In this document: positions 312 through 63,985 of the stretch, in pieces
Layout of the letters: the number at the start of each line of letters is the position of its first letter
How positions within the stretch are numbered: position 1 is the first letter of the stretch
Source: Moniliella sp. 'wahieum'
Lineage: Eukaryota
Assembly: GCA_003971905.1 (NCBI GenBank)
Contig: RSEE01000036.1
Span: 248,001-312,000 of the forward strand
Direction of reading: 5' to 3'
Length of the DNA: 64,000 bases
Translations under genes and position numbers: made by a program
The notes under the pieces: model-generated
The model's database searches: none
What the model was told of the DNA's origin: nothing
The model's input: only the letters and a program-made list of their open reading frames with translations

Positions 312-827
312 TTTTTTATCTGTGGTGGAGATATGGAAGTCAGATCGGAAGGGCGGTCCAGCGAGCAAGGCAGGGGAACGAGCAAAGGTGGAGCAACGTA
401 CGAGTTAAGCCTTGATGGTCTTGCGGGTGAGGTGAACGACGATGAGCTGGCCAACGAGGCCAGCGGTAAGCAGAAGCCTGACTGGATGGTGCTAGGGTTA
501 AGAAGTGGATAATGCACTTTGGAGAGGACGGGACACTGATGATACGCTTGCCCACCAGAATTGCGCCGTAGCTAAACAACGTAGGGTTGGCATCACGTGC
601 TGGAACTGCATTGCTTTGAACAATACTGAAATCTTTGGAATTTCAAAGATGAAATATCTGTGTCGGTGCATTTGAGCTGCGCGTCAGGGATGATAGGATG
701 ATCGATGATCGATGGACACCATTCCGCCTGCCCGGATTCCGTGACATTTTTTTCTTTTCCCCCCCACAAGCAGTAGCACTGCCAGGGCTGCCCCACCCCT
801 CCCCCCACCACCTCTGAGCTCTTCACC

Positions 828-1768
828 ATGCCGCGCGCACGCCGCAACAAAGTTGTCTCGCTGACGCAGACCAGTAAGAAGACTAGGGCCGACAAGGAGT
901 CTTTCGCGCGACACGGTCCGTGATACCGCCAACAAGTTTACCTATGCATGGCTCTTCTCTATTGGCAACATGCGAAATGCCTACATCAAGGATGTCCGGC
1001 AACTCTGGGAGGGCAGCCGTATTTTCTTTGGAAAAGCGGTGTCATTCGCTTTGCTCTTGGCACGGAGGAACAGAATGAACTCCGACCCGGTATCTCTGCT
1101 CTGTCCAACGTACGTTTCATAATCATGCCGGTTTTTCGGGAACGAAACTAACATGGTTTTTATGCCCTACAGCGCCTGACTGGTCAAGTAGGCATCCTCT
1201 TCACGATTCTCCCCGGAAGAAGTGCAGGACTGGTTCGAGAGCTACTCTCGCCCGCGACTTTGCACGCGCGGGCAACATTGCGACGGAAACGGTCGTCCTC
1301 CGAAGGGGCCCGTACAGATGCGCACCACACCGCCCGAGAATCTGCCTCATCCATCGAGCCCCAACTGAGGCAGTTGGGCATGCCCACCGAACTGCAGCGT
1401 GGTGTGCCTACCCTGCTTCGGGACTTCACCCGTCTGCAAAAGGGCGAGAAATTGAGCAAGGAGGCTGCACATTCTGAAACTCCTGCTTGTCCAGCAAGCT
1501 GAGTTCCGCATTATCCCGCTGGCCTACTGGAGTGCTGTGGCTCGCGGCGATAAGGCAGAGGGTGCATTTACCGAGCTTGAGCTCACTCTGAACAGAGAGC
1601 TGTGATTGAGCAAAGCGGAGCGGACCTGGCGGTAGTGGGTCAATCCGGAACAAGGCAGATGGCACTAAGGTTGCCACGGCCCAGAATGCAAGCGACGACG
1701 ACGAGGACGTTGAAATTGACGATGGCGACCAGGTCACCGACGGGATGCTCCCTGCCCACCTCCGCTGA
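828..1768 (+). CDS. MRT4: Ribosome assembly factor Mrt4 (uL10/P0 paralogue)
   Basis: MPRARRNKVVSLTQTSKKTRADKE start; IGNMRNAYIKDVR, IRFALGTEEQNELRPG, DFARAG, SIEPQLRQLGMPTELQRG; intron GTACGT 1110 to AG 1172; acidic tail; several frameshifts. Confidence 0.9.
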
Positions 1769-3494
1769 CGCCTTGTTCACCTTTGCCTAGTTTGCCTGCA
1801 TTTCGTCTCGACCCCACACTCCTCGAATGTACTATTACCTCATGGCGCCTAGCTTGGGACCATGGGGGTGGACTGTGACAGAAACCAAACTCAAAAGGTG
1901 CCGAGTGGGCTCCTGAGAGGTTAAAATGGGGAAGATGCTGGATATTCGGTATACAGCAAGCCGTGAACACAGGCACAAACATGCATGACTTGATGCATGA
2001 GTGGGGTCGAGATATATGAGAGAAGGATTGATAGGTGCCTAGATGTCAAGGATCACGCAGTGGGATTATGCGCCAAATTCGAAAGGCTGGAATACTTCCC
2101 TGTCGAAGTGCGGGAGGAATTGAATCCACTTGCGCACCTGTGTGATGCATTCTTCCGCATGCCCGATCCGAAACGCCTGTAAAAGACAGCCGTCTCCCTT
2201 AAGATGAGCTAGGCTACACCCCCCCACCACACGTGCCATGGCCACTGCATGCATCATGAACAGGGCAAAACGCCTCTTCAAAGAGTTTGACCTCCTCAGC
2301 CATCCCCATCTTTTACCAACGATTGTCTCGCTCTCCTCCGGCGTATATATCGCACACAGACATCATTAGCATTGCCGTTTGACATAGGGGCCTCGCCAAC
2401 ACCATTTTATGGTTTAGCAAATTAACAACACCAAGGTTATCAACGAGAGGGGAACAGATTCTACGTGGGCACAGCAACACAAAACAAAATATGCCCCCGC
2501 TCAGCTCACATGGCTCACAGAGGCCAGGCTTGTAGAGGGCGTTGTGAGGATGCTGCGCAGCGCTGACATGGCTGACAGGCTAATACTCTGGCACCTTTTC
2601 CCTTTCAGTATTACTTCCTACACTTGCTAATAGTAGACGTGGAGAGGGCGAAGCCTCACGGCACCGGTGGCACTTCCTCGTGTAGCGCTATTATACAGAG
2701 GGTCTGTTAAATTTACGGGGCTTTCTCTGACAAGCTGTGATGTGATCGACATGTGATCATCGATCATCGATCATCCGATCATCGGTCGACGATCGATGAT
2801 CTAACATTCTAAAGGCAACGTATCCGCAGTCGGTGATGTATGACCGGATGACCGGATGACCGGTGACCAGCCTGGGGCATGAGGCTTGCATCATGCATAT
2901 ATAAGGCCTAAGGTCTAGGCTGGGCAGGCCCAGCCTAGCAGTGGCTTGAAGCTTCCCTGCCGAGCACCGATTCCCCCGCCACGTAACATTTCACCGCGCG
3001 AGCGCGAAGGGGTGCGCGCCATCCAACTGCGACGTGGCGGTCGCCCTCTGTCCTAAATGTCCCCACGCTCCCCCGCGACCATCGACCCTGGCCCACTCGT
3101 GGCGCAGCACTGGCGCAGCCGGGAGCGAGCGGCACTACTGCGACAACGGAACTGACCCTGTATACTGCACCCTGGCAGCCACTGCTGCGCAGCCACCGAT
3201 GAGGCCCGCAACGCTCATCCTATTGACATCTATCCGTCCATCCATCCGTCCCCTGATTATGCAGCCCTATATATAGCCTACAGGTCTACCACCACAACAG
3301 CACGATAGCCCTCCATCCTTCCCACCAAACCTGCAGTCAGCTTGACGCTGTCACCCTCCAACACTGTGCGCCCGAAAGCCGGATCTTTTTGGCACCCTCC
3401 TCTGCACCTCTTCTCCCTCTTTTTCATCTTACCCCCCCACAATCAACCCTCTACCTATATCGTCTCTCTCTTTCTCTTCCTTCCTCTATCTCTT

Positions 3495-4775
3495 ATTGCT
3501 GGCTACGATTGCTCTCCTCCGCCTTCTCACTCTTTCCATTGTCGCTGGATCGACATTGATTGCCGCTACTCCCGAGTTCAGCTCGGGAGCCGCTCCGGCT
3601 GGTATCGCAGGGCGTGCCTTGGTGTCGTTCTCAATCGTGGAATGAGCCGCAAGCTTCGCATGCGTGGTGACTCGGGCTACGGTGACTCCGGTTCGAACTC
3701 GTCCGGATCGGGGTCGGGTTCTTCCACTTCAGGTTCTTCAGCCTCTGGCTCCGGTTCCGGTCCGGTTCCTCCGGCTCTGGCTAACTCGGATGGTTCGTCC
3801 AACTGGAGTTCAGGTTCGGGTTCCGGCTCGAGCTCGACTTCAAGCTCGGGCTCCTCCGACGGTGCCTCTAGCTCGCAATCAAGCAGCTCTAGTGCTCCTA
3901 GCTCGTCTGGCTCATCTGGTTCCTCCTCTGGCTCTTCGGCCGGACTGAATGTGGGTAAGAATGGCTTGGCTTGGCCAAATGGACCGTGGGTCAACATCCA
4001 GTCCTACAAGAAGACGATGGGTGGCTTTACTCCTGGGATGCATATCCTGCGACGGGGAACCCGACAGCATCTTCGTTCGTCCCGACTCGATTAAGTTCTT
4101 CCCTATGTTGTGGGGGTAACTCGGGCACGCGCGTCTCCAACTGGAAAAAGTACGTACTCAATGACCGTACCTCCACCCGACAGCGCCAAAGTCGCTATGG
4201 GACCCAACGAGGTCAATCAAGCGACAGTCAGACATGAGCGTGAGTGACGCTTGTACCCTTTTCCGCGACTACATTGTTCCCCTCAAGGATCAATGGCTGG
4301 TCCATCATCGGAGCTTCGACCAATGGCGCTCCCGACGGTATCACATGGATGAACACTTTAAGTCGCAGTGCAGTGACGTGTGGAACAAAGTGCGTTTCCC
4401 CTTCGTACCCCCTCTCTTAGCCTTCTTATTGCTGACCTGTTTTCTATATTTAAGGTCGACGCAGACAGCTTGCACTTTTACGGAACTGACCCGCAAAAGG
4501 CTATTCTTACTTTGAGAACTGGTACAACACATTCAAGAAGCCCATTTTCATTACTGAGACAGCGTGCATGAACTACGATGGTTCGGCCCGCGCCTCGCTG
4601 GGCCAAGCGTACAACTATGTCAAGGAGGTTAACAACTGGGCCACACACTAGTTATGTGAAGGGATCGCATTTTCGGTGTTATGAGAGCATCAACATCAAT
4701 TCTGTCAATCGCCTTGCCACCTCGAGCGGCACGCCCACTGATCTGTTCACCTTCTGGGTGAACAATTCTTCCTAA
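3495..4775 (+). CDS. Secreted GH128 (Glyco_hydro_cc) beta-1,3-glucanase-like protein with a Ser/Gly-rich linker
   Basis: Hydrophobic leader LATIALLRLLTLSIVAGSTLIAA; S/G-rich 3670-3940; GKNGLAWPNG, GWLYSW, FFPMLWG, GPNEVNQ, MSVSDAC, SLHFYGTD, KPIFITETAC; intron about 4390-4454; start approximate; TATATATA at about 3268. Confidence 0.8.
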
Positions 4776-5440
4776 ACACCATCTTTTGCCTTTACTTTCT
4801 TCCTGTGCCGGTCACGGGAGGAAGACACTCTGTTACGGACCATTCTCATGAGCTTGGAGGGAGACGTTTTTGTCACTGCACGCGGCGGATGACAGAAAGT
4901 GCGTAATTTCTGCTTTTGCCTTTTGTCCCCACTTTGTGTGGGGACCCCCCCCCCCTCTCTCTTGCTGATGCTAATATGGCCATACTTCTTTGTCATCCAT
5001 TTCTTTGACTTTTTGGTACCGTAGGATGTGTGCGAGCAACGTATTTAATAAACCCTGTCCTGCTAACCCTGACCCAACCCTCTTGCGCACCGTCATTCGG
5101 GAGATACTAGCCTTTCTGAAAACCTTAATAAGGTGTCACATGTCATTGGGTTCAAAATGCTGATGCATGCCTGGAGCATGATGCAGGGCATATGCATGAT
5201 GCATGATGCATGATGGGGCACATCAGCTCATCAGTGCACCCGCGCGCTGATCGCGCTGATTGCGCGGATCATAAGGCGCGCTCTGGCAGCATAACCGGTA
5301 ACAGCAGGCATGCCGGCTTGAACATTGCATGGGCCACTGCCCTTTGCCCGGTGGCTGATGGCATGCATACTCGGTATTCGGCCCAACGAGGCGCGGCTAA
5401 TGCAGTGCCCGTCCTCGCATTCTTCTGCCCCACCTCCACC

Positions 5441-9190: not shown

Positions 9191-9404
9191 ACGTTTCATG
9201 TTGAGTGAAGACCTGGCGGCTGCGATGCATGCAGGGCGCAATAAGCCAACCCTAGTGCAATATACTAGGGTAGAGGGTGAAGTGCGCCCTCTGCCTAGTT
9301 TCGAATCTATGGCGAGCTTGCGATGGGCGTCGGACACTGGAAAGACCGTGGTGAAGCTTGACGCGAGATCCAGTTTACACTCAACCTCCGACACTCCAAG
9401 AAAG

Positions 9405-17933: not shown

Positions 17934-20501
17934 GCTGTGAGGCTGACGAAGAGGAAGAAAAAGAGGAGGAAGCAAGCGGGGGGAGAAAGAGGCGGTGGTG
18001 GCGCGGAACGAACGATAACGGGCGTGAGCTGGGCGAGCTGGCGAATGGGAAGCCAGGGTAAGGCCAAGCCTGAGCCTGGCCACCTGAGCGTTAATGTGGG
18101 CGCGGCGCTCAGCGATGATCGATGAGGCCTGAGGCCCATCGCTCATCGGCTCAACCACCTGCTTGGTGCAGCTCCATCGCCATCCCTATGACGTGCATGA
18201 CGTCAGCACGCGCTCACCGCCACCAACCCAGCCAATGCACAAAAACAAAGTTCACGGGCGAAACCAGAGATCGGTAGACGCGATGGCAAGGCACGCCTCT
18301 GAAAGTTGAAAAAGGTGTGATACGGCGTCACCCCTGTCACATGCCCTTTCGGCGCTGAGGCGCTGGGAGGCGCTTAGGCACTTTAGATGTCACTGTCACA
18401 CTGTACGTTCACTGTCACAGTTGTCACTGGTTCCCATGTCACATGTCGCGTGCCGCTCATGCGGCGTACTCTTCGTCCCCTCTCCATGTCCTCCCCAGCC
18501 ATCGAGGAGTCAATATTCATCTCTGCTCTCCACCACACCGTGTCTTGGTCTCATCTCCACCCACTGACTTTCGCGTGGCTCGTGCGGCCTATATAACGTT
18601 CAAGTGGAAACCCTACTATGAACCACAGCCAGCAGCATGCCGGGCGAGACGGGCTGGGACGAAACGGAGGAAGGGAGACGATTGACAATATTGACACCCC
18701 GCCAGGCATTATTGTGGCTGCTGTTCCCACGCCCCTGGCCAAAAGTGGCTCTCCTCCCGCCGCCATCGCTGAAGATGACAGAGGGTGTCATGCGCATGAC
18801 CCGAGTCAGATCTCAGAGCCGAATACGCTGCCCTGTGCCCTCTTCATTGAAAGCTCTCACAACACCGTGCGGCTGGAGAGCTTATTTCCTCGGTCGTCTC
18901 GCATTGGAGCAGTCTCATTCTCGAACCGCCCCTGCGCCTCCTCCACAAGTAGGGGTTGCGAACATAGCTTGCGCCCTGTGCACCCCCACTTGTGTTCGCC
19001 ACCCCTATAGAAAAGTACTCTTAAAAGACTGTGGCTCGGTCGTCGTTCGCTTTCCCATCTCCATCGCCCCACCACACCGCTACGCCAGCTCACTCTGGAC
19101 GCAATGTCCCCTCTCTCGTCCAATTTTAAAGGAACTGTGACCACACTTCATCCCCTTTCGCTGGCCGTTCGCGTTTATATGCCTGGCCGCGGTGTGCAGC
19201 ACCTTATCCAATGCTCGAATGACGGTCCAAAAGGGGTGGCACCTTCGTTGGAGGGATGGCTTTGCCGCCGATGGGTCAGCTATGCCCCCCCTTGCGCCTC
19301 GACCCATAAGGTCACTGCCCATGCCTGAGCCCGAACGTTGCACATTTCTCTCGTCAACCTGTCACTCTGACTCAACTTTGAGCAGCGATGAGCCACGGAG
19401 TTGACCCATTTTTAGCAAGTCTCTCCTTCCACCTACGTTAAGTAGGCCGAGACGGAGCAGAATGATGGCATTTTACCAAAGAGAACACGTCCTCTTGTGT
19501 GCGTGTCTGACGCGGTCCCAGTTTATCTCTGTTTCATGAGCCCCGGATCACACGAAAGGATCCTTCCAGCACACTAACCCTTTCACAGTGGGAAGGTAGA
19601 AGGCCATTCGGTTAAACGACCAGTGGGCCAACGAGTGTTGTACTAACAGATACGAGGTACGTTCCCATATTCTTGAATGTGGATTCAATCTTGATATTGG
19701 CGTCACGGCTGGGGAGAAAGGATAACGCTGACCAAACTTTTTCAACAGCTTCTTTTTCTCATCTTTTTACACTTTTTCGTTCCATGAGCCAACCAATTTA
19801 GCAGACACTTCTTTTCCATTTCACCTACCAGCACAAGTGTATAGCACCCCCCACCGTTTCATCATCTGCGCACACTTGCCATTCCTGAATTCATACGTTT
19901 GAGCGATTGCATTCCACCTTATACTGATGCGGGTGAATCCATAGTATCGTTTGCTCAACTTCATGTTCACTATGCTATAAAGGATGCCTTTCAGTATTGA
20001 GACTGAGTTCCGTTTATCGCTACTGTCTGGATGGTGGACACTGTGGTGATGCATCAATCATGCATCTTATGAACGTGCCAGCATGCATATGAGCATACGA
20101 ATCCCCCTGTCCTATATCCATAAAAGCTTCTGTTGCCAGCGGGGCTGTATTATGGATTGAACCATGTAACGAGAAAAGTAGGCTGAGACGAGAAATAGGA
20201 CATGCAACTCCATTCGCCTCTGGTATACATCGCCCACTTCACAAAAAGGTAGACGGATGCGTTGTAAAGCTTCTGAAGGGCCCAACAGTACATAGGAGAA
20301 GAGGCAGTGTGGGAGGGGGAATAGTCGCAATTGTGGCAATAGCATGCACCTGCCACCAAGCCGAAAAAATCAAGAAGGGGAACCAAAGAGTATATCCACA
20401 CTCAAGAAGTAAAGTAAAACACCTTCACGTGCTGGAAGCGCTGTTGAAGCACATATGGACGCAATGTGGTCTAGGCCAATGTGAGAGAAGAGGTGGGCTT
20501 C

Positions 20502-20983: not shown

Positions 20984-22179
20984 GGTGTGAGTCGTCAAGG
21001 CTATCCGAGTTGGCGGGCCCAAACGGAAGCGGGCGTGCTCGTGGGTCGGAAAGGAGGGGGTTAAATACGAGTGGTCGATGATCGAGATATCACCAGCCAG
21101 TGTCCAGGCACAGCGCCTGGCACAGCCAAAACAGGCGACAGTGGCTGTGAAGCCGAGGCGGCGGTTCGGCCCAAACGAGGGCGGAGAGGCCGCAGTGCAG
21201 TGCCAGGCAGTACCCCAGTGTCGTTACCTGTTAGTGGTCCCTCTCTCCTCGTCCTCTCCGGCTTGTCCCCACATCTCGGACCGTCTACACAGGGGCCGGG
21301 CGGGGGGAGGTAGTGGAGGCGTGGGGAGGCGCGGGGAGGCGCGAGGCCGCCCCAAGCTGTACTGCTGCCGGCTATACCCTGCCATGCACCATGTATCAGA
21401 GACACACTGCCGGAGGCACGTCTTTCATCGATGATGGATCGCTGATGGACCGATCAGCGTATCAATATCAACGCCTTGGGGGAGTGGCGGCATCCGCGTG
21501 GGTGGCGCGGGGCGGCACAAAGCGGCCCCTGCTCGTCCCATCGGGGGCAGTGTGGCGCGATGTATACGCGTCGCAGACAGGAACCGCGAACGAGCAGAGT
21601 GACGAATGACTAGTGCGGCAGAGAGCGACTGGGTCCTGGGCAGAGTAACGGAGTACTGAGGACACTGAGAACTGACTTTCCGCCTCGTTCATACGCTCAT
21701 CCCGCCGCCTCCAGATGCCCGTGCGGGGTCAAGGGGCGGTCACTGGTCACGCGGGTCACGGTCACTGGTCAAGCCACAAGCTCAAACAGATCCAGCACTG
21801 GCCAAGCTCGGAGATCGAGATCTGAGTTCTGTGATATGTCGCAGGCTACATGTGACATGTGACATGCGAGGCTGTGACGCGTGACGCCTGAGCGCCTGAG
21901 CGCCTGAGGCCTGAGCCCGCTAGCTTGATCGAACTTGAAGAGCTTGAAGAGCTTGAAGCCTGACGCGTGCATTTGGTCGATGGTCGGGTGATCGCGGGGA
22001 GAAGCACACAGGGACACAACCTGGCACAAAACGCCCCGCACCTACACACAGACGTACACGTTACACCCTCTCGTACATCGCGACCCTCACCTCAGGGCCT
22101 CAGGCCCCCCCCAGAGGTCCCCAAGGTCCTCAGGACTTCAGATCTAAGCCTCACATCTCAGGCTTATAGCGCTTAGGCC

Positions 22180-23490
22180 ATGGGCCTTAGGAGAGAGCCC
22201 CGCTGTTTCCTCGCCCACAAGGGTGTTTTGTCTTAAGAGGTGTGGACGGACCAGATTGAATATTGACGATCAAAGTCGATTACCGGCACATAAGCGTGGG
22301 CACAGGCTTTGGGCCAGTCTTAAAGCTCAAGGAGCTTTTAAGGAATTTAAGGGGCCTGACCGCCTTCTGGTTAGGCCTTGTTATTATAATAAGACTCGTG
22401 CGGCTCCGGTGTGGCCATCCACTTCGCCGCAGCCGCCGGACCAGATGAAACATTCCCGGTGGCATCCTTCGGAGGCATTTTGTTAGGAAACTCGCCCTGC
22501 GGTAGCCATCCTTTGTGTTTTCAACCAAGGATCAAGACCGGGTGACAAAAAGAAACGCTGATGAGGTCGATGAGGCATATATACTTCAAGATTTTTGTCT
22601 TTCACAGCTTTGGTATCCCCCCCTCACCAGTCAGCATATATTACTAGAAAGGTGTCATCATGTATACCAACAAAACGAGACCGGAAGATACCGTTATAGG
22701 GCAGGAACTGCTCAAAAAATTCGACGATTCGACGGTCGCAATGTGGCCGAGTACAGGAATCCACTCAACTACATACGGCTCTCCCCAATCCCATCAGCCC
22801 TGTGCCTCCGGATCACCGACGAGCAGGTTCAGGCTGTACACCCGCACCCAACAGTCCATTATTGCGTGAGGCGATGCGAGAAGCCATTCTCCAGCTCGTG
22901 CGCTCCATCCCCGACACCTACATCCACAATGAGCCGACTATGGAGGAGGAGGATGGGACGAGGCGTGGGATAAAGGCAAAAGCCGTATACTGACTACCAA
23001 GGGCTGGGACCTAGCTCATTCGGAAGTGCAGGAATGGAGGAAGACCATACGCGTTGCGGGACTCGGGAACGCGGCCAAATCGATGTCTTCATACCGACGG
23101 AGGATGCTACGCGAGAGCACCGCAACAAAAACGCCTTTGGAACCTCGGGAGAATAAATGATCTGCTTGCTTGGCTGTTGGAACAGTAGGCAGAATGCGAC
23201 AAGAAGGCCGAGTACCACAGGGTCGCGCTCAAGAACCCTTCCTCCTGTTGTGGTTATGACGACGCGAGGATACTACGGCACCAAGACGGCGGGCAAGATG
23301 TTTGCGCATTGGAAGGATTTGGCTACTAAGTCTCAGTGGAAATGGTTCCTCGCTCGGATGTCAATCACGTTCATACGTGTCCACACGCGCTTCCTAGGGT
23401 ACGGGACCGGATGGCGAGAACCGGAGGGTCCTGATATCCTGGCGATCCCCTTGGTTCCTTAACCTGGGTGGTGCTTCCAGGTAACCCCCG
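22180..23490 (+). mobile_element. Degenerate or 5'-truncated non-LTR retrotransposon fragment (CRE-like, restriction-like endonuclease C-terminus)
   Basis: Motifs across frames, in the expected order: FPVASFGG (LPxxxGG-like), FDDSTVA..CAS..H..C, LLREAMREAILQLV..IHNEP, KKAEY, PF.PVVMTTRG, MFAHWK..WFLARMSITFIR; no RT YxDD seen. Confidence 0.62.
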
Positions 23491-25177
23491 CAAGATGAAC
23501 GGTTCGGTTTAGACGTATAGCGTTCCCCCTGTCCCTCCAGCCTTAAGCTCTCTGTCAATGATATGAACCCATCAGCCCCGTTTGCTGAAGTGATATCATG
23601 GATCGAGTGCGTTCGGTGCCATTTATGACACTTTCCCTTGTGGTGTATATGGAGTGTGCGCTCTTATCAGAAACTTGGGAGAGGGAAGCACGCAGGGGGT
23701 ATTGTAATACGAGAGGATACACCTCTCTTTCTTTCCTTTTTGTGGAGGAAACGCACTACATGTCTTTGCCATATGTGCATCACATCTCTCTCGCATCTCA
23801 GATCTCAGATCTCAGAGAGCAAGCCTGTGTGTTCCACATCAAGCAGATATCCACTGGAAAGCCACATATACTTGTGTGGCTTGTGAGGTATTTGGTGCTC
23901 TCTGTGCCCATATACAAGAACTTATCGACGTCATCATCAGTCTCTCGTCATGATATTTGGATACGAGTATGATGTGTGTGTGATTCTATAGCCTGCGTCT
24001 CTCAAACGCTTCGCATATGACTATGTGTCACATCTGTGTTGCTACTATTCTGTCAAATAGAAGTACCATCTCTCTGCTACCTTCATAATTTGCCAATATT
24101 ATGCACCATGTGCATATGGCTCGCCGGAAAGGGTCATGACGGTACTGGAGTGCAAGGCAACCTTGCGATATGGTTTGTGTGGGGTCAAAATTGAGAGCGG
24201 GGTATAGAGGTAAGTATAATGATGTCAACCTAATGATGTTGACGTTCTCGCGCCCTCACACTGACTATAATCGGGTACCATAGTATAACGCGTGACGCAG
24301 TGTACTAAGGCTCATATATCCAACGAAGAGGCATCTCTCCACTATACATCGGGTGCATCAGGGGGGGTTAGGGACTGTTCTAAATGTTGGGCCAATCCAC
24401 ACAGGAGGATTAGCGCGAAAGGATTACCGCATGTTGTGTAGAGGACACAGGCATGCACATGCATCACACACGTTGCGGCCCAAGCACAGACGCACCTGTT
24501 GGCACACTAGCTACATGCAGAATGAGATGCGTTCATCGAGTTCACCAATTATAATCATCGATCGTCGACCATTGAACATTGACCCTCGCCTGCCGCCGTC
24601 AACGCGTCAATCATCGGGGCGTCGAAGGGAAACCCACGTTGGCTTGGCTTGACTAGTGAGTAACTAGTAACTGGTGGCTAGGTGATTTGGCTTGCGCCTG
24701 TACTGGAAAGGAGCAGCACACTATAGTTGTGTGGGCTGGCGCAGGCATTGAATATTGATGTCTTCTCAAGCTTCCGTTGAATGTTGAACATGGAATCGAG
24801 TATTCAATTCTCAGCACTGTCTCATCTACACCGCCCCAATCTCTGGTGGCTTATTTTGCGACGTTCAATATTTGGCGAGAGCTGATAGCCTGCAAGTACC
24901 GACCACCATCTCCCTGCTGCTGTGGGCTCCATGCTGTGCGCTGGCCGCCTGCCTCAGTGAAGTGCCAAACGCAGCTTGCCTGTGCTTCTAGGATCCCTGC
25001 CTGCATGCCCCCTCCGCCGCCGCCCCGGCCGGGACGGTCGCACATGTCGACGCCAAGCATCTTCCGCCCCCTTTTCCGGCCCGTTCTCATCCTGGCCGCA
25101 CACTTCTTTTTCTTTTTCTCGCTGCCCACATTGTACTGGCGCTGGGGACTCTCGTTCTTCGCGTCGCCATTCTTGCT

Positions 25178-29039: not shown

Positions 29040-29877
29040 CGCTGGGCTTGGAAGGGCAGCAGCAGATTCAGTCGGGGGGTGGGGGGGCATGGTGCGCAGG
29101 CCGGTGTGGGTGCGGGGTGGGTGGACAGCAAGGCACACGCGGACGCTGGGGGTGGTGGAGAGCAACGCCAAGGCGACTGGCTCGTCGCCACTCGGCGCCG
29201 CTCTGCACAGCGCCAGTGTTCCGCCCTGTCTCTTTTGCGCCCTGCTATTCCGCCCGCGCCGAGCACGTGCACTTGACGAAGCAAGGCACGGGAGGTGCGT
29301 CCACCAGCAAGCCTGCCGCCAGGCGAGCCCACTCCGCCTGCAGGTGGCGATGCCCGCGTGCCGTCCCCTCCAGGCGAAGGGAAGGCGAGCTCGCGGCTGC
29401 CACCCCCCACCGGTTTGCTTTACTGCCGCCGCCAAGCGGCTCGGCCGTCGCGAAAGAGTCAGCGTGCCGCGCCCCGCGGTTTGGGGGTCCCGTAGAAGTC
29501 ATTCATTGATGCTGCGATCTCGGGGTCACCGGCTCACACTCACGCGCTCACGCCTCACGCCTCACGACGATCGAATTGCATCTTTCGCCAAAGGGCGTCT
29601 TGGGCGATCACGGACACGCCCCATGTGGCCGCGTTGCTCGTTATGTAAGACTTGCGCTCCACTGGGAGGCATGTTCATACGTTCATAGCTCGCTGCTCGC
29701 TCGCCACCATTGCTCCGCCGCTTTCCCTCAGGCCTCAGGAAAGCCTCAGCAGCAGCCGCTCACCCTCCTCAGCCATCGCCAATCCGTTGTCATCCTCCCC
29801 AGAAGCCAACCGCCTCCGCCTCATCTCGCTTGCCTGTCTCCGTACGCCGACGGGCCTCCGCCGACCACCGTTCCGCT

Positions 29878-43513: not shown

Positions 43514-44756
43514 GCTTACGTCGGGTTGGTTGGGAAACAGAACAGATGGAGGGGAGGGGGTGTTCCAGGGGCGGTGGTGGGAGCAGCAACGGTGGTGAGG
43601 GGGAGGCAAGGGAGCAAGGTGGATTGTTTTGTTAGGCTAGCGCTTATGCCTGCGTTGGCACTACTCACGTTCACCGATGAGATCGATGAGCCTGTTTGCG
43701 GGGGCGGCGGGGGCGCAGGGTTGGCGCAGGTGGTCACCGGTCACTGGTCATTGCCGTGGGAGAGTTGCCCAAAGGCTGCGGACGCGCGGGGCCTGCTGGC
43801 GCATGGCGATCGATGATGCCATGCGACCGATGATCTGGGCTGAGCACCGGGGCGCCCAGCCTCTAGCCTCTCATCGGTGATCGAGATCGCGGAGTCATGA
43901 CGGCAATGATGTTCTGTGAGGCAGTGCCTTGGTAATCGATGACATCTTCAGCGATCCACCAGTGACTGGCAACCAGTAGCTTTGCTGGTGACTGGGTGAT
44001 TAGTGTGACCAGACTTCGCTGGTGCGGGGTAGGCACCTTACCTGAGGCCTGAGATCCTGAGAGCCTGAGGCCTCTGGGGCCTGGCCAGCCTGATGGGATG
44101 AGTAATGCATGATGCATGATGCATGGACTCTTTTTCCGGCCCGGATATAACAGTACACTGGGCCTATGCGACGTTGCTCCGGATATAACCTGGCCCGGTC
44201 CGGACACTGATGGGCTAAGCGCTAATTAGAGACTGAGCACATACTGAGCGCCATCTAGTCTTCATCGTCACGCGTCATCATCAGGAATCACGCGTCAGGC
44301 GTTACGCGCTACGCGTTACCTGTTACCGATCATCATGCATCATCGATCATCGATCATTTCATCATTGATCATCCATCAAAATTGTCATCTCCGTGGGGAC
44401 ATGATATAGCTAGGTGCGAGGGGGCTGTCTCTCATTTCCACACGTTCAGAAAGCGCTCAGCGTCACACGTCAGCCGCCGACTGGGGCGGTGACGGTGACC
44501 TGTGGTGGCCAGCGGTGGCCCTCGCCGCCAATACCCGCCCAACCAATTGGAATGCAGAGGCGGAGCCGCTTTTCAGAATGATAGAAACGCCCACACGAAG
44601 AACGCAAAGCTACCTCGTTCCCCGTCACGCGCGTCACGCGTCAATATTATCCAGTCGGTACGCCCACAGTTACTAGTTACATGAGCGCATGAGCTCGGTC
44701 TTCCCACCACGCTTAATGATTAACCTCAGCTTCGGGCACTCATGCATATCACCATC

Positions 44757-48431: not shown

Positions 48432-49711
48432 TATCTGATGACGGGGGGGGTCAGAAAAGCGGGCAACGAGAGAGAACGAGCAGGACATACACAAGCTTGT
48501 CGACTCGAGGCAAAAGCGGTAGGTGGAAGAGAGAAGAAACCGCGCGCAGCGCGCAGAAAAATTTGAAGAGCCGTGGACCGTGCGCGCGCACCGGAATTCG
48601 GAATACAATCAACCTCGTTATGTAATTCTTCCGCGGGATTCAATATTCAATTTTGAAGATTGACGCGATTGAACATTGTAAATGGATATTGGGATCTGGG
48701 ACAGCCAAAACGATGCTGTCTGGGCATTATGTCCAGCATTTCCAACCCACAAGACCATATCAACTGAGTAATACTGAGTACTGAGTCAGTACTGACTGAA
48801 TACTGATTCGCGAGACTGATCATTTCGATCATTGTACTCCCACCCCAACAGCATAGCAGGTTTGCCCAAGCTATGTCCCTTCTTGCTCACGACTGCCCCA
48901 AGAGTGACAGTCATACCACAGAGCGCATCCCCAAGTCCACAATTAAGCTCAAGTCTCTCGCTCATACGCCGCTCCTCATTCCCCTTCCCGCATATGCTCA
49001 TTGAAGAATTAAATCTGGACACAGGCGGTCAAGTTTTACATGCCATCCTGATGGCGGCCCTTCAAGCTTGCTGATCGAGTTGAACGTTGAACGTTGAACG
49101 TTGATCCTTTTCTTAATAGGGGACGCACGCGCGCGGCGTATCGGACGAAGTCGAGCGTGAGCTTGACTATAGGGGTGCATTGACTTGGGCAGCTGGATGG
49201 ATCGCGGCGGCAGGGGCTGGCAAACCCACCAACACGGACATCATTTCTCATTGGCTTGCCAGTGTACCCAGCGCTCAGCTGTCTGAGGGCCTATAACTAG
49301 TTTGTCACAACTGACTGTCAGACTTAGGAGTTGGTGACCGGTGACCGGTGACCGGCGGGGACTAGGTGACTGGCTCAAGCTTCAAGTGACTAGTGACTGT
49401 CACATGAGTGACTACGACTGCGACCTGTGTTCTGCCGCTTTAAGTGTACAGCCCTCCTGCCTTGGCTCCTCGAGCGGCCGCACTGGATCAGCCAGGATCG
49501 CTGCGCAGCCGGCGCAGCACGAGCCCAGTCTCGAAGTGCGAGTGGCGCAGCGCAGCACAGGGCAGTACTCCGCTTAACGGTAGACGTTCAAAAACACCGA
49601 GGGGTCCGTAACGCTGCCGGCCTATTGCTTCTCCCACCACCTTCTGTGCCCCGTCTCGTGCCCATCCTTGACAACCTTGACTGGCTTGACTCTTCAACTT
49701 CAACCTTGACT

Positions 49712-50713: not shown

Positions 50714-51078
50714 TTTTTTTTGACATTTCCTATTCCTGTTATACTTGATGGGCCACGCCCCCCCCCCCCCCCCCCAACTGCTGTGGTTGTGGCGGGCCCA
50801 TCCCATCACCGCCCTTACCCCCATCAACCCCGAACATTTGTTTGGCATGCCCCCTCTTCCCATGTATTCTTCCCCTGCATCTGCGTGTTACAACCACTGC
50901 GACCGATCTTCCTTGCGGAAACACTCCAGCCAGGACAGGCGAAAGCATCCCAAAATGGCCTCTTGTTGCTTGTGCGCGTGCGCTAGACTGCAGTTGGAGC
51001 CAGCGTAGCGGAATGGACTGTGGGACGCTGAGGCGGAATGAATGATAAGGCCTAAGGAGGGATCAAGAGTGCCGGACG

Positions 51079-56700: not shown

Positions 56701-57788
56701 TCGCGGCGTCGCTGATCAATTTCCTGGTTCAGGCGCACAATCTGTGCGCGACAAAGGTCCAAGGTATCGTGTTTCTCCCCCCGAAAAGGAATCCGGCTGT
56801 CGCGATAGGTGGGGCGGGGCAGGAGGCGGGCAATCTCGTCTTCAGTGGCGGTGAACTGGGTAACGACGCCATCCGGAGTGTACACCTCTTGGACTGCGAG
56901 CTTGCCCTTGCGGACCAGTTTATACGCCTTGAGGATGTACTGGGTCTGTGCCTCCTCCAGCTTTTCGGTCCACTTGACGCGTTGCGAAACAAGCGCGGGC
57001 AAGTCACGCATATTGCGGTTGATCCACACTTTGGCCACACCCCGGGAAGGTGGGAGTACATTTTGGTCAGGCGCTTCTCAGAGAGGAGGTTGTTGGGAAT
57101 GCCGGTGACGAGGATGGTACGAGCTTGGGCCGACTGGGTATGGCGCGGAGAGGTGAGGTAGTCTTGGCGAATGGTGACCACATTCTTGACCTTGGCATGC
57201 ACCACAAAACACGTCCACACTGTGCACACCAGCTGGATCACAAAGGTGGCAATGTAGCGCAGTTGTGCCGTCTGCTCTCGGCCGACATTGGCAAAGGTGA
57301 GCTGGTCGATGCCGCTCTTGTGGGCGGTGATGCCGGTGGAGTAGATGGGCATGAGGATGACAAACGTAAGAAAAAAGATGGGGAGGAAGATAACAATGTT
57401 CATCTCGAGATACTCGAGGTAGACAAACGCGTCCAGGCCCTGGGTGCGAGGATGTCAAACTTGGATGCCTTGACGACGGGGACGATCCAGCCAAAGAGGG
57501 AGTTGGGCTGGGGAGGCACACGCTTGGATTTGGGGCCAAGAAAGGTGCGGGGGGCGTAGACCTTTTGAAGCGCGGGCGCAGCAGGAGAAGAGAGTGATCT
57601 CGATGGCACAGAACACGCCGTTGACCCAGAGCGAGACGGCGATCTGCCGCCGGAAGAGGACGTGGCCTGGGGCCCGAGTTGGAGCCGCCGTCGGGGGCCG
57701 CGTTCTGGGCACCGGCGGGGACGGCAAGCGCAGCAAGGATGGCCAGAGCCAGGCAGGCACCCGACACGGACCAGGCGGGGCCGGCCAT
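53789..57788 (-). CDS. CSC1/OSCA/TMEM63 (DUF221; Rsn1/Phm7-like) cation channel
   Basis: VYAPRTFL..SLFGWI, GIDQLTFANV, QARTILVTGIP, VAKVWINRN, NSAFILFHQQIAA, FWCIPVALVGLISNI, FFQNFLFLTIVSG, YRYQLIYV, C-terminal AFLHPAA..LWYPQDEFGL; many frameshifts; 3' end approximate. Confidence 0.92.
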
Positions 57789-60000
57789 GCTGGCAGGCTG
57801 GGGGGGGGATGGCGAGGTGGGGGCGGTGGGAGCGCCGAGCGGTGGGGGTGGCTGGCCGATGAGCAGAAATAAGGCACGCCTGGAAGCGGGTCGAGTCGCT
57901 CGTTCGGGGCTGAAATTTGAAGGCGTACTGCGTCTGAGATGTGAGGAGGAGTACAGTTACTGAGTAAGGGTTGCAGACTAGGGACCGCGTCCCCCCAGTC
58001 AGCCGGGCGACACCGCAGCTGGCTTGGGTGCGGGCGGCCTGGCCTGCTGGCTGGCCTGCCTCGCTCGAGTGGCCGCTGCCGCCGTGGTTGCATGCGTCAT
58101 GCATCGTGCATCACATGTCACAGGCACATGGCCCTGGCAGGCCACACATGCGCCTTCCCCCATCACCCATCCCACCCGTGCGCTCCACCCCCACCTGCGG
58201 CGTAGTGCCGCCCCTGCTTCGCCCCCCCACCGGTGGCAGGGGCAGGTGCCCAGGCACCGTCTAGCGCGTGGGTGGCGTTGCCACCACACCAGCCGCACCG
58301 CACCCTCCCACCCTGCCCTGCCTCGCCCCCGTCCTGGCGCCTGAGCTCTGGGGAGCGTGGAGCGTGGCATGGACTGAGCCTGACACATGCTTGCGGAGCG
58401 ACGGTATTCTGTTACAGCTCGGTTTCCCAGTTTTCACATCGCACTGGCTTTCCGTCTCTCCGATCTCACCGGCCATGTTCCCTTGCGCAACGCAGTCCTC
58501 AGTCCGAGTACTCGCAAGCACTTATGCGCTTAAGATGTACCGTTTGGCTGCCAGCTGCTCGAGCGCCCAGCCTGTGCTCCCGTCAAAAAAACCCGCTTGT
58601 GCGCGACAGGCAGCAACAATGCGCTTAAAAAAGTACTGCGTTTTCCTGTCTCTCAGGGTTTGTGCCCATCAAAACATGTCCGGGTATGTTACCACCAACC
58701 TTAATCGATCTAATCACGTTCCACGTTCAAAGTTATCATCGATCATCGCGCGTCACGCATGCATCTCATTGTTCGGGCATTCTACCCTGTGAGCCAACCC
58801 TCACAGTTACGGTTCGTACTTAGTTACACTGTTACGCGCTAAGTGGTACATCTCCTTGGCGCGGTACTGTCCCGGAGGCCCCACCGGTTCTCTGTTCTCC
58901 CGTTCCTCTGGTCCCTACGCGCTGTCCACCCCAAGCTCTGGCAGCCACCGGCCACCGGCCATCCCTCTGCCCGCCGCGGTGTGTCCATCGCGCACCCTCC
59001 CAGACCTGACCTCAGGCGTCCTGCGCCACACCTTACTGACATTGATGTCACCCACTCATATATGCTTGTCTGCACCTCATCGGCACCGGCCATCGACATT
59101 TTCCACCCAATTTTTGGCGTCGTGAGAAACTCGACTAGATGATGGGATCAGTGATCCCACACCATATGTCATTAGCTCAGCGTCCAAGCCATTGCCACAA
59201 GAAGCCGAAGACTTTCTTCTCTCCCTCTGGCCCTCGAAATCGGACCCACGTTACGCGTTGGGGCTTGCAAGAAACTATCTCTGACTGCTCCCTTCTCGTG
59301 CATATGTGAGCCGTGTGTGCGCCCGTGGAATCCTGAGCCGCTGAGTGCGCGTTTATTGTGAGCCTCCTGTTCTCTACGTTTGTATACTACTCTCTCCTTA
59401 TGTACGGTACTTCTCCTCCTCTCCTTGATTGCTCAAGAAATCAGTTGGTCCGCGGGAGCTTCCAGTTCACTGAGCAGCTGGGCCTCAGCGGGCGCAGGAG
59501 ATGTGGACGGGATACGACGAAGCGTGGGTGTCCGGATCAGATCTCAGACCCACCTGGCCACACACAGTCACCAGTTGGATGGACCCCTTTATTTGTTCTA
59601 GGCCCTGTTCTCCCCTTTGTCTATGCCCCCTTCCTGTTCTCGATGCGACAGTCAGCTCGCATGTTCTCTTCTCCGAGGCATATATTACCTCGCCTCCTTG
59701 CCCATCGATGAATATGATCCTCAGGCCTGATCCCTTTTCCCATCTCCATCGCCTGGCAGCGGGGATGGCTGGGGATGGCACGATCATAAGCTGTGTCAGC
59801 CGGCAGGGTGCTGATTAGTGGTGGATGCGTTGCCTGAGGCTCAGGCCTGAGCCAGGGATCGGGACCGACTAAAGAATGCTCGAGTGCGACTTAGGAGTAC
59901 TCGCGATCCTATGGATCAGCTGCAAAGCAACCTTGACAAGGGGTGAAAGGCAAAAGTGGGTGAACCAATCTTCTAGCAACGTCTGAAGGGAAGGAGGCAG

Positions 60001-60396
60001 GAGAGAACAGGGAGATGGAATGAGCATGGGGCGCGCCGCCTGCGAGCGGAACTCTTCCGCCCGTCGCCGCTAAGCGAGCGTCACCGATCAACTGAGGGTC
60101 GTGCAGGGGAATCCTCACACTACCCTTCAACAAAGAGGACCCACTTCTATATAACGTTGAAGTTCAAGATTCAATTCAGTTGAACGTGGACCGCCTTGAA
60201 CATTGAATACGAGGAGTGCTATCGGATGATACTCTTGTGCCTTCGCAGCCTTCGAGCCTTCGCTTGCTTCTGTTGGAGAGTAGTGCCTAATGCGGGGTTC
60301 CCCTGCGGCCCTCGGTAGATCGGTGACGCTCACTTAGCCGGGCGGAAGAGTTCCGCTCGCAGGGCGCGCCCTGCTCGCTTCATCTCCCTTCTCTCT
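60001..60396. repeat. Long imperfect inverted repeat (foldback), arms about 130 nt
   Basis: Perfect 25-bp match 60039-60063/60339-60363 and 14-bp match 60076-60089/60318-60331, within arms of about 60001-60135 and 60267-60396. Confidence 0.9.
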
Positions 60397-61251
60397 CTCA
60401 TCAGGCCTCAGGGTCCACCGGTCATCCAACAGTCAGCATCCTCCTTTATCCCACCTTCCATTCTCGTCCCTTCCCACATTTCTTGTCCAACTCCTGACCG
60501 TTTCCAGCCAATTGATTGAAGTAATACAGGCAACCTCTCGTCTCCACTTAGCTGCCTCATCTTCATCATCCAAACCTCATCCGCCATCGCGCGCGAACTT
60601 TCCTTCAGTGGCGTCGATTCCCCCTACCACAGCGGTATCGCGTGGGTTCCTTTCACAGCTACGTCCACAGCGCCCCCCCCCAGCTTCAGCCCTGGCAGTC
60701 TTTGTCCTCCACAGCATCTACCCGTCCCTAAGCTCCGGAGGCTTCAGACACGTTACTACCCCCAAGGCGGCGCATACGCAGCCTTTCCGCGCGTGCGGCC
60801 GCCTCGGCTTCACGCCCAAAGGCTTCTCCTCGGCTCGGATCCATCAAATAGCCCAAACCCGAAACTACCGCAGTCGGCAGTGGCGGCACAACTCTCGGCG
60901 TGGATTGAAGGAACATGTGCGCGAGTGTGGTCGTTGGTGCCGCAATGGGGGCCCGCAGTGAGCACGGGTAGGGGGCATTTTAAGGGAGTGGAGGGACGCG
61001 TCGACGCGACTCTGTCATATGCCCGATACTTGGCGCAGCCCCCCCCCCCCCCGTCACGTGCAGGGGGGAGCAGTAGGGTTGCACACTTTTTGATGGGTCC
61101 TGCCATATGGTAATTAAAGATTCAATGTGCCATCACGTAATCCCTGTGGTCAGACTGAGACAATGTAAAACAGCGGGTGCACAGGCATTTAAAAGCAGCG
61201 GGTGGGCTGTCGCCACGCAATTCCCCCCCATCATCTCCCAGCGCTGCTCGC

Positions 61252-61922
61252 GATGAACCGCTTATTCGGTGCCGCTGCTGCTACTCCCTTCAGTCGCGTC
61301 AACTTCTTGCTCCTACTGCCCGCACCCCTGTCCACCTCATCTATTCCTCCTCGTCCTCTTCTGTTTCCTGTCTACCCTCCCATGCTTCTCAACCGTCCTC
61401 GTATGATTCATGTCCATCCTCCAGTCCTCCAGCCGTCCTCTTCATCTTCTTATCCGTCCTCCCATTCCTGTCATGGGCTCGCTCCGCGCCACACAGCCTC
61501 GTGCTTATCCTGCTCATGCACCCTTCCTTGACACATACTATTTCTTTCCTCGTTTCTTTTGACTTATTCCTTAATTGGGGTCCTTCTCCTTCTCCTTCTC
61601 CTCTCCTTCTCCTTCTCCTTCTTTCCTCTCCTTCTCCTCTCTCTCTTTCTCCTCTCCTTCTCCTTCCCTTCTCCTTCTCCTCTCTTCTCCTTCTCCTTCT
61701 CCTTCTCCTTCCGACCACTCCTTCTTCACGACCCGCCCAGACTTGGTCCACGTGTTTGAGCCCCACCTCCTTCCTGACGCTGAGCGCCGCGCCGCCTACT
61801 ACGCCAGGCGGAAGGCGGGGAGCAACAAGTACAAAACCAGGCTGGCACGCCAGCGCGCTGGCTCCGACGTCTCGCCTGGGCCATCTCCCCTTCGCCGAGC
61901 TTGGACCGCGGACGACTTTTAA
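61252..61922 (+). CDS. Hypothetical Ser/Pro-rich protein
   Basis: MNRLFGAAAATPFSR... and ...SPSPSPS..AERRAAYYARRK..PGPSPLRRAWTADDF ORFs; join uncertain. Confidence 0.35.
61581..61712 (+). repeat. Pure-pyrimidine (CCTTCT)n-like microsatellite
   Basis: About 130 nt of only C/T made of degenerate TCTCCT units. Confidence 0.9.
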
Positions 61923-63985
61923 AAGATAGTAGGCTCCTGTTTGTTGTGCTTTTTAATTGGTTTCGCTGTTTTGTTTTTGTTTGATGAAAAAAGACGTTGG
62001 TTTCCTCTCCTCTTTTGATATCTGCCATAGCAGGAAGCCATACTAGTAGGAAGCCACAGCGAGCAAATGGTACATCGAGTCATTGCAGACAATATCATCT
62101 CACAGTCGTATTCTTTTTGATCGGTTCCTGTCCGCTAGGGGTTCACAGGCGACACGCTGTGGCCTTGTTGCAGGGTGAGAACTACCGAAGGCTATGGACG
62201 AGAAGGACAGACAGCGCATTGGTCAGGGCAGCAAACACAATTGTGTGATCCCATGTGATCTGTGATCCGGGGAGGACTTGCAGCACTTGAAGCATAACCG
62301 GTAACCACTACTTACGCCACCTAGCCGTGGGTACTATTTCATAGTTACAAAAACTCTCAAAATAGCGCATGGTTCTGACGCAGACGCCTGCCGCCACCGC
62401 CACACCGCCACCGCCTCCCCGATCACCCGCTCGCCCTCCCCGAGCCACAAGGCTCCTCCCCACTCAACGGAAGATAGCATCGCGTAATGAAGTGGAGCCC
62501 ATCGAGGGGATAGTCGAGCACGTTTTATATTACTGCACCGACTGTGCCAGGGGAGGAGCACCTGGAGCTACTTAGCAATAAATTCAACCGCTATGCTCGA
62601 TTTCCCCAACGCTTTCAACACTGTGCGCCGTCGCACACTCGCAAACGCGCCCTACTGTTATGCCCCCCTCTCCTCTCTTCGAGCACCTCGTGACGGCGTA
62701 CCTGGACGCAATTTACCATGTACTCGGTACAATCACTTTCAGTAGCTACAAAATGTTGCAGTGGTTTCTATTGTCATCAATGCTTCGTTGGGCCTGCGCT
62801 TCTGTACGCAGCCGATGTGTCGCACATGTCAGTGGAACGTGGACGATCAAACATGATTAACATGATTTCCGCGCCTCTGCGTCGATGCGATGACGCTCGA
62901 TGACGCTGGGAGGATCATTGATCGATATTCGCCGTCGGGCGCTCATGCATCATGCGCTATGACGCTCACCTGATGATCCGGATGGGCAATCTGATCAGGA
63001 GAACGGGTAAGGTCAGTGATCTAGGTGAGCGACTTTCCCCGCTTTCGTAGACCAGGATCCCAGCCAACCCATTGCGCCCGTCCACCCAACTCCGATGCCC
63101 ACGCGCCCATGCGCCCACGCGCCCAGCGCCCACCCCTCCGCCCAGCGGGGTTGGCTGTCCAGGAACAGAAACTTGCCTTGTGCCCAGGGGCAGCAGGGGG
63201 CAGCCGCCTTATTCGCCGTGTGCTTGGCGCGGGGCATTAGGTGGCAAACAGTGGCTAGTGGCAAGCGCCAGCCAGGGACCAGCACGCAAGGCGCTGCAAT
63301 GGACACAGGCCCGGAGCCAGTCCCAATCGATGATCCGTCAGCGCGTCAGCTTAGGTGACCGGTGACGGTGAGCGAGTGATCGTCGGCTGGGCACCTACTG
63401 AGTACCGAGTCTCAGTTTTGAGTTGGGTTCAGAGGGTGCTGCAGCACGGCTGCAGGCACCCGCGGCCCTCGAGGCGACCCACTCCCAGCGACTGCAGTGA
63501 CTAGTGACTAGTGCTAGTGACTGACTAGTGGAGTGGCGCATGCTGGGGACGAGGGATTAGGACGTTGCCCGGCATGCCCGGCAGCAAGCAGGCGTTGGCC
63601 CGCGTCGGCAGCGTTGGCGCTGCTGCAGTAGCCGTCTGATGCATGGATGCATCGCAGGCGGCTGAGAAGCTACTCAGTACTGCATGCTCAGCCGCTCAGA
63701 CTCAGTCCGCAGTCTCCCAGTCGCCCAGCCGCTCAGCGCAGACGCTGCTATAAGGCTCAAGCGCCCAACGCCGCGCGCCCCAGTGCCATGCGGCGCCCTG
63801 CCGCGCCCATGCGCGTCCTGCGGCATCTCGAGGCTCGAGGATCGGTGTGTGTTCGGTGTGATATACCCGGTACTGAGTACCTGAGACGAGAATCAGACTG
63901 GCCATACGCAGTACAGCACCACGCCGCTCCCATCATCCGCATCGGCTCTGCAGCAACCTACTACGCCACGCGGCCAGTACCTCTG

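Follow-up and report, generated by a model that had tools for sequence, protein, structure and literature searches.

Palindromic T-N-A junctions in the non-coding DNA of a 64-kb fungal contig window as probable footprints of transposon excision

In the non-coding DNA of a 64-kb stretch of the fungal contig RSEE01000036.1 (Moniliella sp. 'wahieum', contig positions 248,001 to 312,000; eukaryotic, G+C = 56%), short palindromes are repeatedly found beside a TGA or TCA triplet, which raises the question of what could keep the triplet fixed while the bases around it change from site to site. We refer to this whole stretch as the window and give all positions in its own coordinates. A first-pass annotation had listed these sites, and every one of the listed loci was present, including the TAA/TTA-centred variants (at 2902, 24659 and 44668); the many 4-bp palindromes which it had noticed now amount to 15 of the 16 possible types across 55 loci, with TATA alone missing. 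Working from the window itself and the literature, the reading which we favour, with some reservation, is that these sites are the scars left at donor sites (excision footprints) by a cut-and-paste transposon which duplicates 7 bp of its target and is itself absent from the window.

The 55 loci have the form T[G/C]A + 4-bp palindrome + T[G/C]A (n = 48) or the palindrome-centred form, palindrome-TNA-palindrome with a single centre (n = 7), where N is any base, and approximately 2.4 would be expected by chance. When the four bases between two identical centres were examined, these were palindromic in 55 of 100 cases for TGA/TCA and in 7 of 13 for TAA/TTA; in the remaining 30 triplet classes this was the case for 0–12 of 5–116, and the highest values came from rotations of TGA/TCA arrays. 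Primitive perfect period-7 arrays of at least 2 copies number 36, and in 21 of them the unit is T[G/C]A plus a 4-bp palindrome (about 0.5 for random units); the nearest same-strand TGA-TGA distance peaks at 7 (65 cases), with shoulders at 6, 8 and 9. Against 100 dinucleotide shuffles, palindromes which are centred on a single base and have a T[G/C]A core and arms of at least 5 were in excess in the DNA outside a crude mask of open reading frames (crude non-ORF DNA; 21 vs 2.5 ± 1.6), and the other seven centre classes with self-complementary ends (xNx') showed no palindrome enrichment there. In ORF-masked DNA the same T[G/C]A-core palindromes numbered 12 vs 5.8. The loci themselves are denser in non-coding DNA, with 35 in 18.7 kb of crude non-ORF DNA vs 19 in 45.3 kb of ORF-masked DNA and 1 straddling the boundary. 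The observation itself is confirmed and is far from random.

The two centres of a locus are copies of one another on one strand. Same-strand pairs dominate (TGA..TGA 30, TCA..TCA 25) over mixed ones (TGA-palindrome-TCA 1, TCA-palindrome-TGA 4), TAA is partnered by TAA or TGA and never by TTA or TCA, and the TAA..TAA spacer is palindromic in 6 of 7 cases. The excess among 4-nt arms lies wholly in arms which are themselves palindromic (n = 25), with inverted-only arms at 9 vs 7.7 expected and direct-only arms at 8. Because inverted non-palindromic arms are at chance and true palindromes are rare, the unit is a direct repeat with a self-templated junction palindrome, and the original wording of a palindrome with freely varying arms does not hold. 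Quasi-palindromic units were enriched at period 7 (23 of 36 vs 3.9) and to a small extent at period 9 (2 of 9 vs 0.3) but not at periods 4, 5, 6 and 8, and no enrichment was found for 8-bp palindromes, perfect 10-bp palindromes or hexamer classes other than A-NNNN-T. It had been suggested that the sites form a hairpin, cruciform or promoter mark which is read by its structure; the 55 vs 5 ratio of same-strand to mixed centres, the lack of enrichment of the perfect and 8-bp palindromes and the restriction of quasi-palindromes mainly to period 7 all speak against this, since a pattern whose centres are same-strand copies could be imposed neither by a symmetric protein nor by a hairpin.

For similar reasons we consider it decidedly improbable that the sites are functional promoter or chromatin elements read by shape or by a dimeric factor. 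It is true that most of them are in 5' intergenic DNA, with several inside divergent promoters, and that they create A-NNNN-T hexamers, including ACGCGT clusters at 44266-44643; such hexamer palindromes are in excess in the window (121 vs 60 ± 8 shuffled), flanked by G_G (n = 60) or C_C (n = 48) vs G_C (n = 15) or C_G (n = 30). However, 5' regions make up nearly all of the non-coding DNA in this compact genome, the same-strand identity of the centres would be invisible to a symmetric reader, single units occur at chance with the excess limited to duplicated ones, the neighbouring bases determine which palindrome is present, and the strand and type of a site bear no relation to the genes. Adjacent sites are on the same strand in 19 of 39 cases, no more often than expected. 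Sites of the bZIP type, such as AP-1 TGA(C/G)TCA and CRE TGACGTCA, consist of inverted TGA/TCA half-sites about a dyad and were rejected on the rarity of mixed pairs, 1 + 4 vs 55 on the same strand. No 5–7-mer stands out, which also removes any single-motif explanation, and TGATGA-type 3-bp duplications are not enriched (17 vs 13.1).

The structure and specificity of the junctions can be read directly from the DNA. They follow a formula of a 7-bp direct duplication, NN-TNA-NN, plus 0–2 P nucleotides per side, by which we mean bases reverse-complementary to the adjacent end of the duplicate, sometimes with 1–2 terminal bases lost. If the presumed target is written as ab-TNA-cd, its centre is always T-N-A whereas the four outer positions vary freely, and the period-7 loci then read either ab-TNA-[b'a'ab]-TNA-cd or ab-TNA-[cdd'c']-TNA-cd. 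Flank-templated spacers, namely cd followed by its reverse complement or ab preceded by its reverse complement, account for 54 of the 62 palindromic four-base spacers, and a match to the flank on at least one side was found in 40 of the 49 two-centre loci, where approximately 12% would be expected. Perfect period-7 runs end in two phases only, at the T-N-A edge or at the palindrome centre (left extensions 0:19, 1:5, 2:22, 3:6, 5:3; right extensions 0:18, 1:9, 2:18, 3:2, 4:5, 6:3), and the main run classes are one-sided (18 + 12), two-sided (n = 7) and neither (n = 9). The modal run of 12 nt is a 5-nt direct repeat with a 2-nt spacer which is reverse-complementary to the neighbouring 2 nt; a copied 7-mer would need at least 14 nt.

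This anatomy bears on a number of simpler constructions. A microsatellite or minisatellite of direct copies would have ends in random phase, whereas the ends here are locked to two phases and inverted copies occur in the spacers. An origin by decay from exact two-copy arrays is also rejected, since random decay would give an extension of 1 as often as of 0 and the left-hand counts are 5 vs 19. If a 4-bp palindrome were the target and TNA an element-derived insert, palindrome-TNA-palindrome should not be far rarer (n = 7) than TNA-palindrome-TNA (n = 48), and a 3-bp TNA duplication with a palindrome derived from the element termini is at odds with 15 different palindromes dictated by the flanks. 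An Ac-like odd-centred hairpin with TNA at its apex was ruled out because the two centre bases are identical. Arrays of stop codons were considered as well, and in TAG/CTA-N4-TAG/CTA the spacer was palindromic in 1 of 11 cases and the formula fitted 0 of 55; only T-N-A triplets are used, and as TAG is not, stop codons are not the point.

Hairpin-assisted replication slippage, in which near-self-complementary heptamers fold in the nascent strand and expand preferentially like a microsatellite, we regard as improbable. It would suit the tandem arrays of up to 3.7 copies and the quasi-palindromic nature of the units, and chains of identical units could have grown in this way after a first event. 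On the other hand, the lack of a quasi-palindrome excess at periods 4, 5, 6 and 8 argues against generic hairpin-driven slippage, T-N-A alone is used among the eight xNx' centres, just two centres are present in 49 of the 55 loci, and the copying of 7 nt could not yield the modal run of 12 nt. The junctions of periods 8, 9, 10 and 11 moreover hold inverted and not direct copies.

These other periods, detected by Tandem Repeats Finder, are predicted by the formula without added parameters. Pairs at periods 7, 8, 9, 10 and 11 numbered 54, 12, 13, 1 and 1, and there were only 3 plain duplications. Period 9 consists of the 7-bp repeat plus two templated bases, and in 8 of 11 sites the directly repeated part, NN-TNA-NN, measures exactly 7 nt. 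Diagnostic among these are GCTCACA|TG|GCTCACA at 2504..2519 on the minus strand (7-bp direct repeat + 2 P nucleotides) and GCTGACA|TG|GCTGACA at 2562..2577 on the plus strand; further examples are ATTGACA|AT|ATTGACA, GGTCACG|CG|GGTCACG (21745..21760, minus), two chained footprints in which three copies of CTTGAAG are separated by AG (21934..21958, plus), the TAA-centred TTTAAGG|AA|TTTAAGG (22337..22352, plus), GATGAGG|TC|GATGAGG (22560..22575, plus) and GATCATT|TC|GATCATT (48818..48833, minus). Period 8 is the repeat plus one templated base, as in CCTGAGA|T|CCTGAGA. In the period-10 pair at 62891 (GATGACG|C|TC|GATGACG, 62888..62907, plus), 1 + 2 P nucleotides are present and the spacer is fully predicted by the flanks, and the period-11 pair at 2743 (TGTGATC|GA|CA|TGTGATC, 2741..2758, plus) has kept 2 P nucleotides on both flanks, with 8 of 8 spacer bases flank-predicted.

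Taken over spacers of 4–8, 79 of the 336 same-centre TNA pairs fit the formula, compared with 0.52 ± 0.80 and at most 4 in block-wise dinucleotide shuffles (n = 200); the 60 other triplets gave 66 of 7050 pairs, 42 of which were independent of a TNA site. After chains were merged, 65 independent sites remained, 54 of them with one junction, 8 with two and 3 with three. The centre base was G/C in 58 and A/T in 7 of these, and symmetric targets made up 15 of the 65, where about 4 would be expected. At 58944-58961 there is an array of GCCACCG in 2.6 copies, CCA + CCGG, with the same junction logic and a centre other than T-N-A; this may be a rare off-target event of the T-N-A process. Between 2743 and 2795, opposed runs of TGA and TCA units stand about a central GTCGAC and make up a longer near-palindrome, which probably represents several overlapping events on both strands.

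A fixed-length duplication, junction bases which are the reverse complement of their neighbours and small terminal losses are together the textbook signature of donor-site repair after hairpin excision, and the window sites combine such a fixed-length duplication with flank-templated P nucleotides and junctional variety (0–2 bases lost and 0–2 P nucleotides per side). The chain of insertion, hairpin and joining events which we infer would run as follows. The element would insert by a 7-bp staggered cut centred on T-N-A, giving the target-site duplication, and at excision its transposase would seal each flank as a perfect hairpin exactly at the border between element and flank. A host nuclease opening the hairpin approximately 2 nt from the tip would leave 4-nt palindromic overhangs (cd d'c' and b'a' ab). 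End joining would mostly keep one overhang, producing TNA-palindrome-TNA with period 7, and would sometimes keep parts of both, producing periods 8–11. The arms would vary freely because they are templated by whatever flanked the target, and the centre would be fixed because T-N-A is the target preference of the element. At a symmetric target the two overhangs are self-complementary and could anneal to give two exact copies, which would explain the 15 symmetric targets among the 65 sites. As the scar restores T-N-A targets with symmetric flanks, re-insertion and excision, or later slippage, could build the chains of 3–4 identical units. The earlier idea of a local process that builds palindromes survives in spirit in this scheme, although its geometry does not: TGA is the middle of a duplicated 7-bp target and not the loop of a hairpin. 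Replication template switching in particular does not match, as the palindrome lies between the two copies and each of its halves is reverse-complementary to the neighbouring duplicate end.

The steps proposed here have precedents. Canonical, Ac-like hAT elements make an 8-bp duplication with the consensus nTnnnnAn. The window sites differ, with a duplication of 7 bp whose centre is T-N-A, T and A directly flanking the central base, and even palindromes such as GCTGACA|TG, and the element was therefore not filed as a canonical hAT. According to the accessible text of PMC5499845, hAT, Transib, MULE and RAG hairpin the flanking DNA, after which end joining leaves footprints. [quoted passage not shown] Ac/Ds, a hAT system of plants, Saccharomyces and Candida albicans, thus resembles the window sites in the duplication kept on both sides, in terminal deletions with P nucleotides, which are put down to hairpin-capped flanks being opened and end-joined, and in the small number of junction types, but its palindrome is centred on the complement of the element-adjacent base (PMC5873905, as accessible), whereas the window palindromes are even and centred at the edge of the duplicate. 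Coding joints of V(D)J recombination, and with them Transib/RAG, come closer in this respect, having perfect flank hairpins and even palindromic additions of 1–2 nt per side (mechanism as given in the accessible text of PMC5499845). No such element or recombination signal was seen in the window, and the duplication here is 7 bp. For comparison, Transib/RAG transposition produces 5-bp GC-rich duplications, and Artemis opens hairpins 2 nt off the tip.

Duplications of 7 bp are known among the transposon groups of Basidiomycota, namely hAT7 in Pucciniales and Kyakuja in Laccaria bicolor (PMC12730594, in the part available). Both share the phylum and the duplication length with the window sites, and hAT7 belongs to a hairpin-forming superfamily; in the same available part of PMC12730594, however, they are known from Pucciniomycotina and Agaricomycotina and not from Ustilaginomycotina, and no copy of either is found in the window. 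Overall, the geometry is RAG/Transib-like and the duplication length hAT7- or Kyakuja-like. Tc1/mariner elements likewise leave a fixed short scar between duplicated target bases in non-coding DNA after excision, the canonical example being the Sleeping Beauty scar TA-C(A/T)G-TA. Their inserted bases are constant and come from the element ends, whereas here they are flank-templated and the constant part is the target. Replitrons were also considered and, as far as the accessible part of the preprint describes them, are not relevant to the pattern.

Several observations weigh against excision footprints. Foremost, the window holds no element: among 1433 pairs of NNTNANN 7-mers which could bound terminal inverted repeats, the best reached 9 of 12 (4 pairs) and spanned genes, no dispersed repeat families occur within the 64 kb, and a transposase Pfam domain is missing from all 202 window ORFs of at least 110 aa. 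For a lineage poor in transposons, 65 mostly perfect scars in 64 kb is a high density, and the dominant outcome, in which one side loses 2 bases and the other gains 2 P nucleotides, is unusually uniform. Even-centred palindromes do not fit canonical hAT, as the footprints of the Ac type are base-centred. Eight palindromic spacers match neither flank, 20 spacers are one mismatch off, with a background of 187 of 1616 for other triplets, and a generic scan for repeat-P-repeat structures gave an excess only of the 5-nt repeat with a 2-nt spacer, all of TNA type. Indel errors are also frequent in the assembly. A long inverted repeat at 60033-60369, in which arms of 31 and 33 nt (complementarity 94% and 88%) enclose a unique middle of approximately 200 nt, resembles foldback elements or miniature inverted-repeat transposable elements; no obvious T-N-A duplication flanks it.

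Some of these points would be met by a host or domesticated nuclease which, without any mobile element, cleaves open promoter DNA at T-N-A time after time, leaving ends that are staggered by 7 bp or capped by hairpins, with fill-in, hairpin opening and end joining giving the duplication and the P nucleotides. Neither a transposon nor a transposase was found in 64 kb, the very high density is clustered in some promoter regions with none in others (0–8 sites per 2 kb), and the outcome spectrum is very uniform. Nevertheless we hold this to be unlikely, as a duplication followed by hairpins on both duplicated ends requires something to have been excised in between, and a low-copy element is expected to be absent from a 64-kb sample. 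We know of no host process that duplicates DNA and then hairpins both duplicated ends. The more specific form, in which a domesticated hairpin-forming host nuclease recurrently cuts promoter T-N-A and its scars write new palindromes and tandem units into promoters, appears to us less likely again; if true, this fungal lineage would have a generator of cis-regulatory variation built into it.

The quality of the assembly also has to be considered. Frame switches within contiguous coding sequence were found in the genes for the RPD3-type deacetylase (37762-39410), a DUF221 protein (53979-57576) and an Mrt4-like protein (829-1780; judged by eye), where successive protein segments align to overlapping ORFs of differing frame. 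As conserved genes change frame in this way, the assembly appears to be rich in indel errors, and the switches point to about one such error per few hundred bases, pseudogenes being less likely. These frameshifts are the grounds on which the sites themselves could be put down to an artefact of assembly or base calling in noisy long reads, but random indels cannot make flank-templated palindromes which are restricted to T-N-A and to non-coding DNA, and this origin is very improbable. The deacetylase coding region also contains a 26-nt inverted repeat (38535-38560 and 38832-38857, 92% complementary, 271 nt apart).

With regard to location, none of the 65 sites falls in the 7.9 kb of Pfam-matched coding sequence. 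Forty-six lie wholly within the crude non-ORF mask, and the rest are in stop-free stretches without a family match, often just upstream of gene starts. Together they cover 1042 nt, equal to 4.0% of the crude non-ORF DNA. Most are in 5' intergenic DNA, including the CK2-beta/CDC50, acyltransferase/44720 and NAP/M50B divergent promoters, one (52953) is in a convergent 3'-3' region, and the 9.5 kb from 34.2 to 43.7 kb hold no sites. As the non-coding DNA of this compact genome consists mostly of 5' regions, a promoter preference is suggested and no more. Arrays with the same palindrome inverted around genes were also looked for and were at chance by permutation (15 pairs vs 17.7 ± 3.7).

Among the period-7 junctions and chains, ga-TGA-TCGA-TGA-tcgatg (697..714, plus) lies approximately 115–130 bp upstream of the Mrt4-like gene. 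Others are two chained junctions of TCA TCGA (2755..2775, minus), three chained junctions with periods 8, 8 and 7 and units of ATGACCGG (2840..2868, plus), the TAA-centred variant TAA GGCC TAA gg (2902..2913, plus) and two chained junctions of TGA TGCA upstream of the lanosterol-synthase-like gene (5192..5215, plus). Two adjoining junctions at 18113..18136 (plus) have differing palindromes, TCGA and then GGCC. A junction of TGA CATG (21848..21866, plus) is close to a run in which successive TGA triplets are separated by CGCG, CGCC, GCGCC, GCGCC and GGCC (21874..21916, plus; periods 7, 8, 8, 7), and two chained junctions of TCA GATC follow at 23795..23816 (minus). In the CK2-beta/CDC50 divergent promoter, the palindromic target CCTCAGG is present as an exact two-copy unit (29726..29739, minus).

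Further along, CC TGA GGCC TGA GATC C TGA GA at 44041..44062 (plus) combines periods 7 and 8, the TGA TGCA array at 44105..44125 (plus) has a TAA-centred first unit, and three chained junctions at 44331..44357 (minus) consist of TCA TGCA once and TCA TCGA twice. At 44623..44643 (minus), junctions of periods 9 and 7, cg TCA CGCGCG TCA CGCG TCA, create ACGCGT hexamers. The longest chain, three period-7 junctions in which gt is followed by four TGA triplets separated by ACGT, is found at 49079..49104 (plus) in the NAP/M50B divergent promoter, with two chained junctions of TGA CCGG at 49333..49355 (plus) and an array of TGA CTAG at 63496..63513 (plus). Clusters of ACGCGT hexamers occur at 44266-44320 and 44620-44645, in a divergent promoter, and all of them are made by CGCG-type scars. 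These clusters resemble MluI boxes or cell-cycle boxes, and footprints may in this way supply ready-made palindromic binding sites.

The genes of the window are ordinary fungal housekeeping genes, encoding Mrt4-like, lanosterol synthase, RPL7, NDUFS4, CK2-beta, CDC50 and sedolisin proteins as well as p24, V-ATPase F, an RPD3-type deacetylase, NAP, an M50B peptidase, an RRM protein and a DUF221 channel. In protein searches the top named relatives were species of Tilletiaria, Tilletia, Violaceomyces, Malassezia and the Ustilago group, with identities of 80% for a deacetylase fragment, approximately 42% for the DUF221 protein and 83% for one unnamed protein. By these matches the host appears to be a Ustilaginomycotina-like basidiomycete without a close named relative. 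A metagenome scan with the NAP protein for DNA of relatives yielded just one contig, at 33% identity, and did not help. Repeats with no relation to the T-N-A pattern are a 42-bp tandem repeat in 2.2 copies (61352-61443), a (TCCTTC)n microsatellite of approximately 22 copies (61581-61711) and poly-C runs of 14–18 nt at 50758-50775 and 61039-61052.

No description of this pattern in fungi was found in our literature searches. The mechanism is already known, and what is new is that a 7-bp target with T-N-A at its centre is combined with this hairpin geometry, with scars chained into microsatellite-like arrays and, most of all, with such a density in a smut-like fungus. What had looked like an intergenic grammar becomes a readable record of DNA breakage and repair, and it should be noted for motif discovery that strong symmetric "motifs" can be wholly mutational. 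The excision-footprint reading predicts a yet-unseen element which duplicates 7 bp, has T-N-A at the centre of its target and leaves its flanks as perfect hairpins that are opened approximately 2 nt from the tip. If it is true, approximately 4% of the non-coding DNA of the window would be recent transposon scar, left by 65 events in 64 kb of which almost all are perfect, and this would imply heavy recent traffic of a promoter-seeking element in a lineage usually regarded as transposon-poor. Excision scars of this kind can seed microsatellite-like arrays and palindromic promoter hexamers, including those of the ACGCGT type, and so provide raw material for binding sites.

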